Shown here: piece after piece, positions 5,833-36,647 of the stretch
Position numbering within the stretch: position 1 is the first letter of the stretch
Layout of the letters: every line of letters begins with the position of its first letter
Source of the DNA: a virus
Lineage: Duplodnaviria > Heunggongvirae > Uroviricota > Caudoviricetes
Direction: 5' to 3' (one strand)
DNA: 44,053 nucleotides
Virus record (IMG/VR): IMGVR_UViG_2597489870_000002
Coordinates: 1-44,053 of that record
The notes under the pieces: model-generated
Database searches by the model: none
Told to the model about the DNA's origin: nothing
The model's input: only the letters and a program-made list of their open reading frames with translations
Made by a program: the position numbers and the translations under genes

Positions 5833-6417
5833 TTATTGTTTGTTTTTTTCGTTCTGGTTGATGACAAATTCAATGTAACTTTCGATCTTTGCTTTCTCGG
5901 TTTCGGGTAACAATGCGTAGCGCGAGCGGTCATAGTTGATGGTCGCAGGGTCGTGCGGGTGAATCAGTAATTCATAGCCGTGACGCCCGAATGCGGATGC
6001 AACATTCTCCAGGGTGGAAATGGAAACGCTGACCTCATTGTTTAACAGGCGGCTGATTGTCACCTGGGCGACGCCGGATGCGCGGTGAAGTTTTCCCTGT
6101 GTTGAAAGGTCGCGGCTTTCGCTCATCCAGCGTTCCAGGTTGTGAGCCGCCAGCTGACCTATATCGCTCGGGCCGACAGGCTGAAAACCTTCCTGAGAAA
6201 GCGAGCGATCGATATCAAGCCAGTTACGGGGTTTATTGGCGGCAGCTTCAATTTTTCGCGCAACCTGGTCGCCGATAACCTTCTTGCCAAGAGCCCAGCG
6301 GTTTACCAGATTTGCCTGAGTTCCAAGTTTTTCTGCCATCCGCGTCTGAACACCATTGAATTCACGGTCGATCAAGTCGTTGAGATTTTGCCTGCGGACG
6401 TCCTGGATACTTTTCAT
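5833..6417 (-). CDS. CI-like prophage repressor (HTH-XRE), no peptidase domain evident
   Basis: 194 aa; N-terminal HTH (GVQTRMAEKLGTQANLVNRWALGKK) and a second HTH-like segment (ASGVAQVTISRLLNNE); divergent from a cro-like gene across an operator region; no S24 Ser/Lys peptidase motifs seen. Confidence 0.75.
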   Translation of the reverse strand: MKSIQDVRRQNLNDLIDREFNGVQTRMAEKLGTQANLVNRWALGKKVIGDQVARKIEAAANKPRNWLDIDRSLSQEGFQPVGPSDIGQLAAHNLERWMSESRDLSTQGKLHRASGVAQVTISRLLNNEVSVSISTLENVASAFGRHGYELLIHPHDPATINYDRSRYALLPETEKAKIESYIEFVINQNEKNKQ

Positions 6418-15541: not shown

Positions 15542-15618
15542 TGGTGCGGCATGCAGGATTCGAACCTGCGGCCAACCGCTTAGAAGGCGGTTGCTCTATC
15601 CAACTGAGCTAATGCCAC
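15542..15618 (-). tRNA. tRNA-Arg (anticodon UCU)
   Basis: 77-nt cloverleaf ending in CCA; anticodon loop CUUCUAA; T-loop GGTTCGAATCC; 7-bp acceptor stem with one G-U pair. Confidence 0.85.
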
Positions 15619-18887: not shown

Positions 18888-19880
18888 ATGACAATGGCTG
18901 TTAAAGGCTTAACTGCGCTAACGCTGGCTGACTGGGGTAAGCGCGTCGATCCAAACGGGAAAGTCGATAAGATTATCGAGCTTCTCGGTCAAACTAACCC
19001 GATCCTTCAGGATATGCCTTTTGTCGAAGGGAACCTTCCTACGGGACACCGAACCACCATTCGTTCTGGTTTACCTTCAGCTACCTGGCGTTTGCTGAAC
19101 TATGGCGTACAGCCAAGCAAATCAACCACAGTGCAGGTCACCGATTCCGTTGGCATGCTGGAAACCTATGCTGAAGTCGATAAGTCACTGGCTGATCTGA
19201 ACGGCAATACCGCCGAATTCCGCCTGTCTGAAGACCGAGCATTTATTGAAGCGATGAATCAGCAGATGGCGCAGACGCTGTTTTATGGTGATTCCAGCGT
19301 TAACCCTCAGCAGTTTATGGGACTGTCCTCCCGCTATTCCAGCCTGTCTGCGGGTAATGCTCAGAACATCATTGATGCTGGTGGCACGGGTACAGATAAC
19401 ACCTCAATCTGGTTAGTGGTGTGGGGCGAAAACACCGTGCATGGCATCTTCCCGAAAGGGCAGAAGGCTGGCATCCAGATGGAAGATAAAGGCCAGGTGA
19501 CACTGGAAGATGCTAATGGCGGCAAGTACGAAGGCTACCGTACCCATTACAAATGGGACAACGGACTTGCTCTGCGTGACTGGCGTTATGTTGTTCGCAT
19601 TGCAAACATCGATGTCAGCAATCTTTCAGAACCTTCCTCTGCCGCAAATATTGCGAAGTTGATGGTTAAAGCACTACATCGCATTCCAAACCGTGGCATG
19701 GGCCGCCCGGTGTTCTACATGAACCGCACTGTAGGCCAGACTCTTGATCTGCAGTCTCTGGAGAAAACATCCCTGGCTATCAGCGTAAAAGAGACAGAAG
19801 GCGAGTGGTGGACTTCATTCCGTGGTGTACCAATCCGTGAAACTGATGCGCTTCTGGAAACAGAAGCCCGCGTGGTGTAA
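18888..19880 (+). CDS. Major capsid protein
   Basis: 330 aa, strong GAGG ribosome-binding site, position after scaffold, followed by a stem-loop. Confidence 0.75.
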   Translation: MTMAVKGLTALTLADWGKRVDPNGKVDKIIELLGQTNPILQDMPFVEGNLPTGHRTTIRSGLPSATWRLLNYGVQPSKSTTVQVTDSVGMLETYAEVDKSLADLNGNTAEFRLSEDRAFIEAMNQQMAQTLFYGDSSVNPQQFMGLSSRYSSLSAGNAQNIIDAGGTGTDNTSIWLVVWGENTVHGIFPKGQKAGIQMEDKGQVTLEDANGGKYEGYRTHYKWDNGLALRDWRYVVRIANIDVSNLSEPSSAANIAKLMVKALHRIPNRGMGRPVFYMNRTVGQTLDLQSLEKTSLAISVKETEGEWWTSFRGVPIRETDALLETEARVV

Positions 19881-19896
19881 CGCCTGTTATTAACCT

Positions 19897-19916
19897 GTGG
19901 GTCGTAACAGACCCAC
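19897..19916 (+). other. Stem-loop after capsid gene (no U-tract)
   Basis: GTGGGTC-GTAACA-GACCCAC perfect 7-bp hairpin. Confidence 0.4.
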
Positions 19917-19931
19917 TAATGGAGAAAGAAG

Positions 19932-20369
19932 ATGATCACCGACAAACTGTTGATGTTCTCCGAAGCACAGGCGGTAACTGATACCGCGGCTTCTACTGAC
20001 GTAATCGATCTCGGTCCAATTGATGGGAAACGTCGTGATATCGGCGTGGGTTACCCGCTTGAGTTTTGGGCGCTGGTTAACACAGCCGCCGCAGCAAGCG
20101 GTGATGCAACTGTAAACATCCAGTTGCAGACGAGTGAGGATAACAGCTCATGGACCACTATTTATGATAGTGGTGCACTGGCAAAGACCGCCCTGACAGC
20201 AGGTAAACGAGTTGTTTCTGCAAAGGTGCCTGCCGGTGTTCAGCGATATCTGCGTGTTAACTACTCCGTCGCAACTGGCCCACTAACGGCTGGCGAATTC
20301 ACTGCTGGTATCAGTCTTGATGTTGATGCCAATACGCCGTATCCGATCCGCTCAAAAGTAACTGGTTAA
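19932..20369 (+). CDS. Virion protein, possible capsid decoration
   Basis: 145 aa, Thr/Ala/Gly-rich beta-type composition; placement after capsid gene. Confidence 0.4.
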   Translation: MITDKLLMFSEAQAVTDTAASTDVIDLGPIDGKRRDIGVGYPLEFWALVNTAAAASGDATVNIQLQTSEDNSSWTTIYDSGALAKTALTAGKRVVSAKVPAGVQRYLRVNYSVATGPLTAGEFTAGISLDVDANTPYPIRSKVTG

Positions 20370-20759: not shown

Positions 20760-21089
20760 GTGTATATGGAACTCGTAAACCTCAAAACCGGCACTGACAG
20801 CTACCAGGATGAGAGCGGAGAAACCAGAACTCGCGATGAATACCCGTGGGGGCTGTGCATCACTCTTAATAACGACACATTGAATAAGCTGAAGGCGCAA
20901 CCTAAGGGCGTCGGAACGGAAGTGATGATAACTGCAAAGGCTGTTATTCGAGGCCTGTCTGCCAGAGAAACTGACGATGGCGTTAATCGCAGCGCCGATC
21001 TGCAGATCACTGATATGGCGATCGCTCCTGTTTCCGGGGATGTAGAAAAATCAGCGGCTGAAACTCTGTACGGTAACGGAGGTGAGTGA
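20760..21089 (+). CDS. Hypothetical virion protein
   Basis: 109-aa ORF at start of tail operon. Confidence 0.45.
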   Translation: MYMELVNLKTGTDSYQDESGETRTRDEYPWGLCITLNNDTLNKLKAQPKGVGTEVMITAKAVIRGLSARETDDGVNRSADLQITDMAIAPVSGDVEKSAAETLYGNGGE

Positions 21090-32735: not shown

Positions 32736-32757
32736 AAAAAAGCCCGCGGCGCGGGCT
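32736..32757 (-). terminator. Rho-independent terminator of minus-strand two-gene operon
   Basis: GCCCGC-GGC-GCGGGC hairpin plus 6 U on minus strand, adjacent to the stop codon. Confidence 0.7.
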
Positions 32758-33134
32758 TAATTAACTTCGAGGATAATAGAATCTTTAGACTTGAATCCCA
32801 CTTTCCTCATGGCTGTAATGACGTTTTGGATAATCCACGTTTTCCCAAACTCTCTTTCGTGTACAATGGCGCAAGGAAAATGAAGGGCGCTTTTGTTGCA
32901 CTTTATGGTGAAAGTTGTACCTTCGGCAAAATCCAAAACAGTCTGCAGATGTGCAGATATAAACGATTTAAACACATCTTCAAGCTCAGCAAGAGTAATT
33001 GGCGGTTTGTTCCTCTCGTCGTTCAGGCGTTCATATGCTGCATGAAATGAAAAGTGAATTCTTGCCGCATCTTCTTGCAAGATCTCGTTAATCTCATCCT
33101 CAAGATCAATGAGTTGTTGTTCTGTTATAGACAT
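32757..33134 (-). CDS. Hypothetical acidic protein (second gene of overlapping pair)
   Basis: 125 aa; 10-nt overlap with upstream gene; no recognisable motif. Confidence 0.5.
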   Translation of the reverse strand: MSITEQQLIDLEDEINEILQEDAARIHFSFHAAYERLNDERNKPPITLAELEDVFKSFISAHLQTVLDFAEGTTFTIKCNKSALHFPCAIVHEREFGKTWIIQNVITAMRKVGFKSKDSIILEVN

Positions 33135-33343
33135 AGATAACGGGATGTCGCCTCACTTATTTTTTGATTTAATTCATCATCATTGGATGCGCGTACAGTA
33201 GCAACATGCTTACTTTGGCGTAGGGTCCCAATTCTGATATCAAATTCTTCATTATCGAAAGAGTCAACGAAAACAGCTTTACCAGTTTCTGGATGGTAAA
33301 AAGAGGCATAGTTTTGGTTGAGTTGCATATCAAATTTAAACAT
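33125..33343 (-). CDS. Hypothetical small protein (first gene of overlapping pair)
   Basis: 72 aa; GGGAGGATGAT ribosome-binding site; operator-bearing promoter upstream. Confidence 0.5.
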   Translation of the reverse strand: MFKFDMQLNQNYASFYHPETGKAVFVDSFDNEEFDIRIGTLRQSKHVATVRASNDDELNQKISEATSRYLCL

Positions 33344-33460: not shown

Positions 33461-33476
33461 TTACCTTTGGGGTAAT
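33461..33476. promoter_or_regulatory. Operator palindrome upstream of the two-gene operon
   Basis: TTACCTTTGGGGTAAT, with a minus-strand TTGATT hexamer just downstream. Confidence 0.5.
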
Positions 33477-33540: not shown

Positions 33541-34233
33541 TCAGAAGAACCCTGCCTTGTCGTTGATGTACTCCGCGTGCGTCTGGATATCACGCAGGCA
33601 TTTGCTCACACCGACGATGTAGCAGAACATGGTGGTCAGTTCCGCCGCCGCGCCCGATACATCATGCCCGTCGTCCTGCAACTGGTTTAGCAGATTCATC
33701 AGCAGTGAGTTCTCCGTCAGGCCGAGAACACCAGACGGCGAGTGAATCAGGCTACGGTAGCCTGGCTTCAGTGGGGCACTGTAGGTTTTGTTCTCTATCT
33801 TCATTGCCTGCATCACTGCTGATGCTGTGGCGTTGGCTACCTGGTCGGCAACCATCTTTATGCGCTCTTCCTGCGGGAGCGAGTTTTTAATGTAGCTTCC
33901 GGTGCGGCGGATCTGAGGAAGAACCTCACCTGTAACCCATTCAAGAAATCTGAATGCTCTCGTTCCCTCAGTCATTGCCTCTTTGCAACGCAGAATAAGG
34001 ATGTAGAGACCTGATTCTGAAACGATGGATAGTTCTTGTATTCCACCAGGGGTCTGTATTGAATACAGCCCCTTTTTGTTCCAGCCTTTTTTATCAAGTT
34101 TTCTCGCTTGTGTAACATCAATATTCAAAGCATTGCACACATCTTTGGTGACAAACCAAGGTTCTCCGTCAATCATGAACATACGGATCTGGCAGGATGA
34201 CTCAAAGGAAAAGATGGAAGGTTTGGTATTCAT
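33541..34233 (-). CDS. Antirepressor (Bro-N domain plus Ant C-terminal domain)
   Basis: Start at ATG 34231-34233 with AAGGTGA; Bro-N-type N-terminus (FESSCQIRMFMIDGEPWFVTKDVCNAL); C-terminal domain paralogous to ORF 35379-35654. Confidence 0.7.
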   Translation of the reverse strand: MNTKPSIFSFESSCQIRMFMIDGEPWFVTKDVCNALNIDVTQARKLDKKGWNKKGLYSIQTPGGIQELSIVSESGLYILILRCKEAMTEGTRAFRFLEWVTGEVLPQIRRTGSYIKNSLPQEERIKMVADQVANATASAVMQAMKIENKTYSAPLKPGYRSLIHSPSGVLGLTENSLLMNLLNQLQDDGHDVSGAAAELTTMFCYIVGVSKCLRDIQTHAEYINDKAGFF

Positions 34234-34387
34234 GGCGATCACCTTTGTAGTTAGGTTAATCACCACCGCTGAGACCAATCAGATGGTGGTGAACTGTGCA
34301 GAGTTGGTCTTACCGGCTACAAAGGAACCCGGCGCACCTTTCGGTGCCCCCACACAGCCCACCATAGAATAGGTGCGCTTTACACAT

Positions 34388-34406
34388 AAAAAAACCGCTT
34401 ATGCGG
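34388..34406 (-). terminator. Short intrinsic terminator in the ant leader
   Basis: CCGC-TTAT-GCGG stem plus 7 U on minus strand, preceded by two further stem-loops. Confidence 0.4.
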
Positions 34407-34500
34407 CGTATGTGCCTCTGTAGTAATCCGGGAGACCAATCCCGGCACTGGATTTTGCCAGTGCCTGATTACTATGGCACAAGAGGAGTGCGATGTAAAT

Positions 34501-34609
34501 TTACCGCAAAGGTAATGATAAGCGAGGAGAAATATCAAAATCAACCGTATTTGGTTGATGGAGTTTAACGCTTGATCACCTGAAAGCAAGATATTACCTT
34601 TAAGGTAAT
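34501..34609. promoter_or_regulatory. Divergent promoter region with two operator palindromes
   Basis: TTACCGCAAAGGTAAT (34501-34516) and TTACCTTTAAGGTAAT (34594-34609). Confidence 0.55.
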
Positions 34610-34628
34610 GTTATTGTGAGGAAAAGCA

Positions 34629-35357
34629 ATGGAAGTTTTCTGGATAGTTGTTGGTGTGGTTGCGGTGATTATTTACGTTATCAACCAGAACAAGACTAAG
34701 ATCTCTGATCGTACGGTCGTTAATCAGAACAAAACGATAAAGACCGAAGATGGGGAGATAACGATTAATCGTACACAGGTGATAGACCGCACCTCCACTC
34801 AGTTTCACAAAGCTGGAGGTGATGCGCCTAATATTTCCGTACCTCCTGATTATGATAGTGCGGTAATCCAGACATATTATAAACAGCAGGAGTTAGCAAA
34901 AGAGAGGCAACTGATTCAGCCAAAGCCATTTACAGCAGAGCTGCCACCTGGTGTGTCAACGCGTCCGACATATCATGGAAGATTCCCTGGTGATGACATA
35001 TCGTCTCAGTCACCTAAAAAAGCACTTCAGGTAGTATCAGAGCCAGCAAGAATACCTTCTGTGTCGCCGCCAAAAGAAGAATCAGCTAACAGAGTTTCAA
35101 GTGGTAGCAAGCAGTGTTTGCGATGCAGAATAAACCTTCCATATGAAAAATTCAGGAAATCTTCAAAAAATCCAGATGGATTGACTAAGTGGTGTGCAAG
35201 GTGTCTCGATGGCCCAAAGAATACACGCCATATGAAGTGGTGCCCAATTTGTAATGTCCGCAGAAAACGAACCAGCTTTTACCCTAATAATCAAAATGCG
35301 GATGGCTTAATGGCATGGTGCAAAACGTGCTGGGACGAGCACAAAGCGAAACGATAG
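34629..35357 (+). CDS. Membrane-anchored protein with tandem zinc-ribbon repeats
   Basis: 242 aa; N-terminal hydrophobic helix; C-terminus has two copies of C-x2-C...DGL-x2-WC-x2-C. Confidence 0.55.
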   Translation: MEVFWIVVGVVAVIIYVINQNKTKISDRTVVNQNKTIKTEDGEITINRTQVIDRTSTQFHKAGGDAPNISVPPDYDSAVIQTYYKQQELAKERQLIQPKPFTAELPPGVSTRPTYHGRFPGDDISSQSPKKALQVVSEPARIPSVSPPKEESANRVSSGSKQCLRCRINLPYEKFRKSSKNPDGLTKWCARCLDGPKNTRHMKWCPICNVRRKRTSFYPNNQNADGLMAWCKTCWDEHKAKR

Positions 35358-35378
35358 GCCGCTCTTGCGGCCTTTTCT

Positions 35379-35654
35379 TTATGTGGTTTGTTTTCGTAAT
35401 TGTTCAGCACAATAGTCGAGATGTGTTTGCAGATCCTGCATAGACATCTGTGAGCTGGTGACGTAGTTAATCAGTGCAGTCAGTTCGGCAAGTGGGCCAT
35501 CGACATTAAATCCATCCTTATCGAGATCCCGGAGTAATTTCATCAAGTGCGATCCCTCCACCAGTGACCTGACGCCTCCCGGCGTGTGAATCCTTTCGGT
35601 AAATCCGTCTTCCAGTGGATAGTGATACTGCTGCATCTTATCTTCCCCATGCAA
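35379..35654 (-). CDS. Stand-alone antirepressor C-terminal-domain paralog
   Basis: 91 aa; roughly 45 percent identical by eye over about 64 residues to the C-terminus of the 33541-34233 antirepressor. Confidence 0.5.
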   Translation of the reverse strand: MHGEDKMQQYHYPLEDGFTERIHTPGGVRSLVEGSHLMKLLRDLDKDGFNVDGPLAELTALINYVTSSQMSMQDLQTHLDYCAEQLRKQTT

Positions 35655-35712
35655 TAACTGTATATTTATACAGTATCAAATAATTTGTTTGCTATCCAGC
35701 ACGTTTTGCGAA

Positions 35713-35728
35713 TCACCTGAAAGGTAAT
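35713..35728. promoter_or_regulatory. Operator palindrome upstream of tailspike gene
   Basis: TCACCTGAAAGGTAAT; ATGTGGTT at 35759-35766. Confidence 0.5.
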
Positions 35729-35831: not shown

Positions 35832-36647
35832 ATGACGGTCTCAACCGAAGTTGACCACAACGAATACACAGGTAACGGCGTTACGACATCATTTCCTTAT
35901 ACCTTTAGGGTTTTCAATAAATCTGATCTGGTAGTGCAGGTGATTGACCCTGACGAGAATATCACTGTGCTGGCTCTTGATACTGATTACACGGTGACGG
36001 GGGCTGGAGGATATACTGGCGGGAATGTCATCCTCACAACTGCTCTGGAGAATGGATTTCGTATTTCGATAGCACGTGAACTCCCAGTTACGCAGGAAAC
36101 CGATCTGCGCAATCAAGGCAAGTTCTTTGCAGAGGTGCATGAGGATGCTTTTGATAAGTTAACTATGCTGCTTCAACAGGTTAGAAGTTGGTTTAGTCTG
36201 GCGCTGCGCAAGCCGTCGTTTGTCGCAAACTACTATGATGCTCTTGGTAACTACATCCGCAATCTTCGTGACCCGTCACGTCCTCAGGATGCGGCCACCA
36301 AGAATTATGTCGACTCACTGGCAAGCATTAATCTGTCTAAAACGCTGAGAATGCCAGAGGCAGTACCAGAGCTTCCAAGCGCTGAGCTGAGAAAAAACAA
36401 AATTGTAGCAATGGATGATTCAGGAAATCCTATCATGGTTCTGCCTGAATCTGGTTCCGCTTCAGATGTAATGATTCAACTTGCATCAAGCAATGGTTTA
36501 AAGTTTATAGGTGATGTTCAGTCTGTTATAAAATTAAATGATGCTATCGGAAACATAGGTGATAAGATTTTTTTAAAGTCTTATGTTGAAGGTGAGAATA
36601 AAGGTGGTGGGATTCTTGTTGCTGTTGATAACTCACTATTAGCGTAA
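35832..36647 (+). pseudogene. Tailspike/tail fibre, N-terminal fragment truncated by IS insertion
   Basis: N-terminus of podovirus tail-fibre anchor type (NEYTGNGVTTSFPYTF); reading frame runs into the IS left end and stops at TAA inside the inverted repeat. Confidence 0.7.
36636..36643. repeat. Target-site duplication, left copy (CTATTAGC)
   Basis: Identical 8-mer at 39343-39350 directly outside the IS termini. Confidence 0.8.

Follow-up and report, generated by a model that had tools for sequence, protein, structure and literature searches.

Two antirepressor genes with a shared Ant-like module in an epsilon15-like prophage, and their predicted control by LexA and by a C4 RNA

Introduction

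The window analyzed here is the whole 44,053-nucleotide (nt) viral record IMGVR_UViG_2597489870_000002, which represents an epsilon15/phiV10-like (Uetakevirus-type) podovirus prophage. Next to its tailspike gene lie two genes for antirepressor proteins (Table 1). The shorter one, ant, encodes a small stand-alone protein, and the longer one encodes a Bro-N domain fused to a C-terminal Ant-like module (referred to below as the Bro-N fusion). A first-pass annotation had described the pair as a full-length antirepressor accompanied by a stand-alone copy of its C-terminal domain. The present analysis found that the two proteins share one module, homologous to the Ant protein of phage SPC32H, and that each gene is predicted to have a control of its own, namely the SOS repressor LexA for ant and a C4 antisense RNA for the Bro-N fusion. 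This analysis itself supplied the evidence on homology, module fold, LexA box, RNA matches, complementarity and covariation, and synteny; the binding of Ant to Rep, the LexA control in SPC32H, the action of c4 in P1 and P7, and the phenotype of ZX5 ORF4 are taken from the literature.

The region is present at 100% identity in enterotoxigenic Escherichia coli (ETEC) H10407 (NC_017633.1), and it is matched at least in part by 543 of 5426 complete E. coli genomes (~10%).

The two antirepressor genes

In SPC32H, genes for an injection protein, a membrane protein, ant, and the tailspike follow one another. Compared with this arrangement, the window contains about 2.9 kb of additional DNA between the membrane-protein gene and ant, consisting of two small open reading frames (ORFs), the Bro-N gene with its leader, and an ORF of 242 amino acids (aa) on the opposite strand. 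Prophages of E. coli and Klebsiella share one order: tailspike, ant, optional cargo, leader, Bro-N gene, and variable small genes.

Both reading frames had been called mechanically from upstream TTG codons, and both starts were revised. For the short ORF, TTG 35654 was dropped in favor of ATG 35636 on the basis of homolog lengths (85-86 aa) and of the Shine-Dalgarno sequence found at this ATG, which is probably the true start. For the long ORF, TTG 34278 was dropped in favor of ATG 34233, which also has a Shine-Dalgarno sequence; here the lengths of homologs and the presence of RNA targets within 34242-34278 pointed the same way. Positions 34234-34278 are thus a leader carrying RNA targets and not coding sequence. 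Residue numbers given below for the 245-aa and 91-aa ORFs refer to the mechanical calls.

Table 1. Features of the antirepressor locus and of related parts of the window.
Feature	Position	Strand	Remarks
ant, 85-aa stand-alone antirepressor, SPC32H Ant ortholog	35379-35636	-	mechanical ORF (91 aa) reaches TTG 35654
Predicted LexA (SOS) box AACTGTATATTTATACAGTA	35656-35675		2 mismatches to the 20-nt consensus
Bro-N::Ant-like antirepressor, 230 aa	33541-34233	-	mechanical ORF 245 aa, TTG 34278
Bro-N domain	about 33916-34188	-	Pfam PF02498
Ant-like module of the fusion	about 33559-33789	-	after low-confidence linker
Promoter-like element of the leader	34471-34499	-	-35 TTTACA (34499-34494), 17-nt spacer, TG-extended -10 CATAGT (34476-34471)
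IsrK-like RNA	34388-34464	-	Rfam RF01394 isrK, 73 bits against gathering 50, E 5.7e-15
Putative copies of C4 targets within the IsrK-like RNA	b1 34433-34439; a1 34415-34423	-	
Intrinsic terminator ending the IsrK-like RNA	34394-34407	-	
C4 antisense RNA	34282-34369	-	Rfam RF01695, 78.6 bits against gathering 45, E 5.8e-15, full model 1-87
C4 loops	a' 34318-34326; b' 34304-34310	-	a' CCUUUGUAG; b' AGACCAA
C4 targets in the mRNA leader	34242-34278	-	b2 34272-34278 (UUGGUCU); a2 34242-34250 (CUACAAAGG)
rep, prophage repressor, presumed target of both antirepressors	5833-6417	-	phmmer against 5d50_A 'Repressor', E 4e-42, full length
Palindrome TCACC-N5-GGTAA (1 mismatch), candidate Rep operator	35713-35727		between ant and the divergent tailspike gene
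Palindrome TTACC-N5-GGTAA	34594-34608		20 nt upstream of the 242-aa ORF start
Palindrome TTACC-N5-GGTAA	34501-34515		abuts the leader promoter -35; centre about -44 from the IsrK-like 5' end
Palindrome TTACC-N5-GGTAA	33461-33475		upstream of the downstream cargo genes
All 15-nt palindromes (start positions)	5699, 5761, 6473, 6521, 6858, 8804, 8866, 10216, 12575, 12593, 15883, 33461, 34501, 34594, 35713, 40850		
242-aa cargo ORF between ant and the Bro-N leader	34629-35357	+	phrog_6762, E 2.5e-147
Hairpin terminator after the 242-aa ORF	35356-35373		
Two small cargo ORFs (72 aa, 125 aa) downstream of the Bro-N gene	32757-33343	-	phrog_14630, phrog_14518
IS66-family element	about 36650-39380		ORFs 36697-37374, 37374-37721, 37741-39312 (HTH_Tnp_1 protein, TnpB_IS66, DDE_Tnp_IS66)
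tRNA gene	15545-15618	-	Rfam tRNA, 71 bits; position of the annotated tRNA-Arg of SPC32H

One module in both proteins

Alignment of the two ORFs by BLASTP gave 31 identities over 74 positions (42%), without gaps and with an E-value of 2e-19. Residues 164-237 of the 245-aa ORF are placed on residues 8-81 of the 91-aa ORF, and the shared stretch comprises about 74-77 residues. The first-pass annotation had aligned the short ORF by eye with the last 64 residues of the Bro-N antirepressor; this similarity was confirmed and extends further than had been claimed. The motif that had been read from it (IH.P.GV..L.E.S.LM.LL..L..DG..V.G..AELT...Y...D.QTH..Y) is also real. In an alignment of the fused module with nine stand-alone homologs, 22 columns do not vary, and the fusion keeps all of them. 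It had further been stated that only the long ORF carries a Bro-N domain, and Pfam agrees: PF02498 matches residues 31-121 of the 245-aa ORF at 51.2 bits (gathering cut-off 25.6), and Pfam finds no Bro-N in the short ORF. In fact, no Pfam or NCBIfam model covers the short ORF, whose match to DUF724 (17.4 bits against a cut-off of 38.4) was dismissed as noise.

When the short ORF was searched against all Protein Data Bank (PDB) chains with phmmer, a single sequence was matched, 5d50_E, an 86-aa 'Anti-repressor protein' (E 1.7e-47), with residues 8-91 aligned to residues 3-86 of 86, that is, over the full length. The C-terminus of the Bro-N ORF (residues 164-240 of 245) matches the same chain with an E-value of 1.8e-13. 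Modeled alone, the fused module gave a confident structure, with a predicted local distance difference test (pLDDT) score of 90.8. A Foldseek search of the PDB with this model retrieved only the Ant chains 5d50_E, 5d50_G, and 5d50_H, with template modeling (TM) scores of 0.71-0.81, root-mean-square deviations of 1.3-1.9 Å, and a probability of 1.00; the matches ranked after them were noise. The full-length protein was modeled with a pLDDT of 64 and consists of the Bro-N domain, a low-confidence linker, and a helical C-domain. When this full-length model was used for a fold search, matches were confined to the Bro-N part (the baculovirus Orf22 N-domain and APSES/Mbp1 folds), and 5D50 was missed.

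A word-indexed homolog search with the short Ant returned stand-alone close relatives only, and the fusions surfaced in an exhaustive profile search of 1.84 billion representative proteins. In this search the module was found in 59 clusters, most of them of stand-alone proteins of about 80-95 aa. Longer proteins invariably have it at the C-terminus, preceded by a Bro-N, AntA, or Phage_pRha domain, and in phage TL-2011b it follows a P22_AR_N domain. Because the same module occurs C-terminally behind different N-terminal domains, it is a shuffled effector module of modular phage antirepressors. Moreover, in 14 of 14 viral loci where the module sits on a C4-controlled gene, a stand-alone Ant is present too, and loci where C4 controls other genes have no stand-alone Ant.

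The stand-alone ant gene and its LexA box

The short protein has about 88% identity (tblastn) to SPC32H_020, which is annotated as 'ant: anti-repressor protein'. It also matches phrog_450 (E 7.5e-48), a family labeled 'unknown function' in PHROG. Close homologs (95-99% identity) are numerous. The gene was found in 35 of 35 epsilon15-like phage records of the collection, always adjoining the tailspike gene and divergent from it, including the records of SPC32H, epsilon15, and SPN1S, which have no Bro-N gene. The possibility that the short ORF is a decaying fragment, or that its similarity is due to chance, was ruled out by the E-value of the alignment and by this universal conservation; its conservation had been left as a point to be checked in the first-pass annotation.

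The predicted LexA box upstream of ant is the only such site in the window, where none is expected by chance. Its CTGT-N8-ACAG core is exact and stops 21 nt short of the ant ATG, and the box overlaps what is likely the core promoter. SPC32H, phiV10, and other E. coli loci have CTGT-N8-ACAG at the corresponding position, as do Klebsiella loci with one core mismatch. A second LexA box was looked for upstream of the Bro-N gene and was not found. Of the two genes, it is ant that is predicted to be under SOS control through LexA.

In the summary given by PMC7380047, citing Kim and Ryu 2013, self-cleavage of LexA in the SOS response leads to production of Ant, and the phage repressor is then inactivated by protein-protein contact. 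The SPC32H Ant tetramer is described in a passage of PMC9638917 as binding two Rep dimers and thereby breaking the Rep tetramer, and a passage of PMC9986798 places the Ant-binding surface on the C-terminal tetramerization domain of Rep (CAD/TetDloop). Binding of Rep by an Ant tetramer and release of Rep from DNA are known for SPC32H only, and by homology they would apply here. Every testable defining feature of the SPC32H Ant family was found in the short gene. Since it is an ortholog of the 5D50 Ant, occurs in all of the phage records, and has its own LexA box, and since Rep is encoded in the window, the stand-alone copy is the primary, ancestral antirepressor of this lineage and not a truncated derivative.

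The Bro-N fusion

The Bro-N fusion belongs to a family with 967 matches in E. coli, Salmonella, Klebsiella, Citrobacter, and Enterobacter. Nearly all of the best 120 of these 967 are 227-236 aa long (some are called longer and a few are shorter or partial), with 92-100% coverage of the query. The top match, at 99% identity, represents a cluster of 355 member sequences. PADLOC found no defense-system match for the Bro-N protein or for the cargo ORFs.

Experimental context comes from the phage vB_EcoP_ZX5 (ZX5), whose ORF4 is a Bro-domain 'anti-repressor' with 80% overall identity to the protein in the window. From the linker to the C-terminus the two proteins differ by one residue, and their Bro-N domains differ by about 35%. 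Overexpression of ORF4 lowered the lysogen titer from 1e9 to 1e6 and reduced rep transcription by 75%, and the repressors of ZX5 and phiV10 are the same in sequence (PMC9782041). By analogy with ZX5 ORF4, the Bro-N fusion is predicted to antagonize the phage repressor.

The phiV10 reference (NC_007804.2, 19551-20230) has a Bro-N gene that is frameshifted inside the Ant-like module, passing from frame -2 to frame -1 near residue 181. It is therefore annotated as two pieces, p23 (194 aa) and p22 (29 aa). This frameshift is either a sequencing error or a natural knockout.

IsrK-like and C4 RNAs in the leader

The stretch of roughly 300 nt before the Bro-N ATG is unusually conserved from E. coli to Klebsiella. 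It includes the promoter-like element, which is fully conserved in the leader alignment, followed by the IsrK-like RNA and the C4 RNA (Table 1). Within the IsrK-like RNA, b1 is a perfect 7-nt match to b', and a1 has one mismatch in the window (a perfect run of 5 nt) and matches over 8 nt in relatives. Between the end of C4 at 34282 and the ATG at 34233 there is a gap of 48 nt, which contains no ORF. Complementarity is perfect over 9 nt between a' and a2 and over 7 nt between b' and b2. Because a2 covers the Shine-Dalgarno sequence, ending 8 nt before the ATG, a resident C4 RNA would block translation of the Bro-N gene.

The specificity of the pairing was examined across loci. The a' loop of the window (CCUUUGUAG) is of a different type from that of phiV10 (CCUUUUAG), and in five loci compared each a' pairs over 8-9 nt with its own leader and over 0-6 nt with the others. 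Further, 58 C4 units from viral contigs contained 19 distinct a' loops and 3 b' cores. Pairing with the own leader had a mean of 8.35 nt, and 21 of 23 reached at least 7 nt; for mismatched pairs the mean was 4.5 nt and only 4.4% reached at least 7 nt. In most types the distance from the end of a2 to an ATG is 7-11 nt, and every b' type has b1 and b2 sites of its own that match it perfectly. The C4 loops and their targets thus show compensatory covariation across 19 a' and 3 b' types.

The pair of isrK and C4 is also present in phiV10, TL-2011b, ZX5, and one Klebsiella prophage and is absent from SPC32H. In the ZX5 record (MW722083.1) a coding sequence annotated as 'ash family protein' (1779-1892) overlaps the C4 RNA (1821-1906, 77.7 bits). 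It is probably a mis-annotated non-coding RNA.

Rep and its candidate operators

Besides its full-length match to the 5D50 repressor, the Rep of the window matches 5d4z_A through its C-terminal part (E 4e-20). It is 42% identical to SPC32H Rep and 100% identical to phiV10 p40. The 42%-identical Reps have in common the motif NLVNRW in their N-terminal helix-turn-helix. Between the window and SPC32H (locus L005: ant 19676-19936, rep 33739-34335), Ant is 88% identical and Rep 42%. That Ant is far more conserved than Rep suggests either that a conserved surface of Rep is recognized or that there has been recombination between modules.

The palindrome TTACC-N5-GGTAA, with at most one mismatch, occurs 16 times in the window, where 0.78 occurrences are expected. 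Nearly all copies are intergenic or in promoters, and clusters flank rep (5699 and 5761 on one side, 6473 and 6521 on the other). Palindromes are found at syntenic places in SPC32H (three on each side of rep) and in phiV10. The copy at 35713-35727 has kept its position in SPC32H (20013-20027) and phiV10 (20877-20891), and the copy at 34501-34515 has an invariant position in the E. coli, phiV10, and Klebsiella loci. On this evidence the palindrome is probably the operator of Rep (or of Rep and Cro), used genome-wide, comparable to the operators of P1 C1 or the stoperators of mycobacteriophages.

Cargo genes and the state of the prophage

The 242-aa cargo ORF has an N-terminal hydrophobic segment and two zinc-ribbon-like CxxC pairs, with weak matches to endonuclease VII/HNH zinc ribbons. 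It is absent at this position in phiV10, ZX5, locus L007, and several E. coli loci. Downstream of the Bro-N gene lies a slot whose content differs between prophages: in place of the 72-aa and 125-aa ORFs, TL-2011b and loci L007-L012 have other small genes, among them a YafO-like toxin gene. The slot resembles a variable cassette of the moron type and has a palindrome of its own at 33461.

The tailspike gene is split by the IS66-family element into parts of 271 aa (35832-36647) and 484 aa (39382-40836). The prophage in this strain can probably not make infectious particles; its regulatory genes are intact.

Comparison with known systems

The closest relative of the ant circuit is the Rep-Ant-LexA system of SPC32H (PDB 5D50 and 5D4Z; Kim and Ryu 2013; Kim et al. 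2016). As in the window, it has a homologous two-domain Rep, an Ant of the same length placed divergent from the tailspike gene, and a LexA box upstream; unlike the window, it has no Bro-N gene, C4, or isrK. The E. coli Uetakevirus ZX5 resembles the window in having the same Rep and in having isrK and C4 upstream of ORF4 but has no 242-aa cargo ORF. The ZX5 paper mentions neither a short Ant, LexA, or SPC32H nor the C4 and IsrK RNAs (PMC9782041).

The leader of the Bro-N gene resembles the immI region of P1 and P7. In these phages, c4 RNA blocks translation of ant at the ribosome-binding site, which underlies P1/P7 heteroimmunity (PMC12197685). The elements are in the same order (putative a1/b1, then C4 with a' and b', then a2/b2), a2 occludes the ribosome-binding site upstream of the antirepressor, and the loops are hypervariable, as in the C4 units described here. 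However, P1 has icd, whereas the window has no icd-like ORF and a2 lies on the antirepressor's own Shine-Dalgarno sequence. The window also differs from P1 and P7 in that the antirepressor consists of Bro-N and an SPC32H-Ant-like module, the phage is an epsilon15-like podovirus, and the target would be Rep instead of C1.

A similar arrangement is found in the isrK-orf45-anrP unit of Gifsy-1. There, the antirepressor-like gene anrP is reached by read-through from IsrK, a processed RNA follows immediately after IsrK, and translation of the downstream gene is activated by IsrK in trans (PMC4825925). In both cases an IsrK-family RNA with a terminator is followed by an RNA at the C4 position and by an antirepressor-like gene. 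The window has no equivalent of orf45, and the AntQ-mediated growth arrest of Gifsy-1 has no known counterpart in it.

The slot between the injection-protein genes and the tailspike is the one taken by immI (mnt, arc, sar, ant) in P22. Unlike P22, the window contains neither arc nor mnt, and no sar RNA was found in it at the Rfam gathering threshold. A P22-type immI unit is present in TL-2011b (NC_019445.1, 31060-32244), with an Arc-like repressor, a sar RNA (RF00262, 44.8 bits against gathering 43), and a P22_AR_N antirepressor. TL-2011b therefore has three copies of the module, in a LexA-box Ant, a C4-controlled Bro-N fusion, and a P22_AR_N fusion accompanied by the Arc-like repressor and sar.

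Proposed model and alternative explanations

Taken together, these data make it reasonably probable that the prophage has two antirepressors built on one Rep-binding module and placed under two controls, SOS/LexA and C4 RNA, in a slot equivalent to immI. In a lysogen, LexA would sit on the box overlapping the ant promoter, and DNA damage would remove it, allowing Ant to be made. Following the SPC32H structure, the Ant tetramer would then bind the C-terminal tetramerization domain of Rep, so that Rep tetramers would split into dimers and leave their operators, leading to induction. The Bro-N::Ant-like mRNA would begin with the IsrK-like RNA, containing a1/b1 and the terminator, followed by C4. 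The a' and b' loops of C4 would pair with a2 and b2 and block translation of the Bro-N fusion, as c4 does for ant in P1 and P7. The fusion would be made mainly when C4 is absent, is outnumbered by the IsrK-like decoy, or is of a different specificity, as upon infection or superinfection. We infer that the Bro-N fusion is an immI-type anti-immunity factor, that its module binds this Rep, and that labor is divided between the two genes; the ZX5 experiment supports these last two points indirectly.

Several observations weigh against this model. The c4-a1b1 model RF03163, which overlaps isrK, scores 38.4 bits and so falls below its gathering threshold of 46.7. The ZX5 phenotype was obtained by overexpression of a glutathione S-transferase (GST)-tagged protein and stops short of direct Rep binding. 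Given the frameshift in the module of the phiV10 reference, at least one viable phage can do without the fusion. The AlphaFold match to 5D50 lends support without being fully independent evidence, because that entry predates AlphaFold training. With the IS66 element in the tailspike gene, selection on the circuit in this strain is uncertain. Lastly, a fused module with 42% identity to Ant may bind another repressor or serve only in oligomerization.

In an alternative that we regard as unlikely, the Bro-N fusion spares the resident Rep. It would then either be tuned to the repressors of other, heteroimmune epsilon15-like prophages, serving solely for cross-induction or anti-immunity, or use the module merely to tetramerize a Bro-N DNA-binding regulator with a direct effect on transcription. 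The low identity of the paralogs would fit such a role, as would the DNA-binding-type fold of Bro-N and the attachment of the module to four different N-terminal domains. Moreover, AnrP of Gifsy-1 increases transcription of antQ although no repressor target has been demonstrated for it (PMC4825925), and cross-induction of other prophages by trans-acting antirepressors has been documented (PMC3121763, in the summary given by PMC7380047). However, ZX5 ORF4, which has a nearly identical module and acts in a phage with the same Rep, lowered lysogeny and rep transcription of its own phage (PMC9782041). The fused module also retains all invariant positions of the Ant family, and it is only in phages with a Rep of this family that the fusion and Ant are found together.

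The first-pass annotation had proposed that the short protein is a truncated paralog that competes with or modulates the Bro-N antirepressor, as a dominant-negative form or in mixed oligomers. The paralogy over the C-terminal module stood, and the two genes lie side by side, with ant present wherever the fusion is. Mixed tetramers of the paralogs, and with them some mutual modulation, are physically conceivable, as Ant acts as a tetramer according to the passage in PMC9638917. The proposed polarity did not hold, since it is the Bro-N fusion that is the accessory, lineage-restricted gene, whereas the short form is universal in the epsilon15-like records, has an independent SOS promoter, and is by itself the crystallized, functional antirepressor. 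In addition, each paralog is highly conserved within its own clade at only 42% identity between them, which suggests long independent function. The role of truncated competitor or modulator is thus very unlikely, and the claim was abandoned in favor of an SPC32H Ant ortholog. The least probable explanation, to which we give hardly any credence, is that the prophage is defective, that at least one of the two genes is a relic without function, and that their similarity stems from an old duplication. The split tailspike gene and the frameshifted phiV10 copy would be in line with decay, but both ORFs are intact in the window and have numerous close homologs, the regulatory RNAs score above gathering and co-evolve with their targets, the LexA box is near consensus, and the region is found, in part at least, in about a tenth of complete E. 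coli genomes.

Implications

The components of the two-antirepressor model are already known, and what is new is a homology link and a correction of annotation, not a new kind of system. In the literature searched, the homology of the two genes, the correspondence of the Bro-N family C-terminus to the SPC32H Ant fold, and the wiring of one module into two or three classical circuits within a lineage were not reported. In RefSeq, E. coli genomes still list the short Ant as a 'hypothetical protein', as do most phage records, despite a crystal structure and a mechanism. Through its SPC32H-Ant-like C-terminus, the Bro-N 'antirepressor' family of about 1000 members gains a testable structural mechanism.

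A broader view, which we put forward tentatively and hold to be somewhat short of probable, is that one compact module has been wired repeatedly into LexA/SOS, C4/IsrK, and (in TL-2011b) Arc/sar circuits, acting on the same master repressor with independent inputs. If this were true, the hypervariable a' and b' loops of C4 would provide epsilon15-like podoviruses with a second layer of heteroimmunity, this one based on RNA, and Bro-N, AntA, Rha, and P22_AR_N 'antirepressors' that carry the module would gain a concrete mechanism, namely a tetramer binding the C-terminal domain of Rep. The findings suggest that in epsilon15-like prophages two or three independent signals converge on a single repressor, which has a bearing on prophage induction and cross-talk in ETEC and Shiga toxin-producing E. 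coli (STEC) strains.

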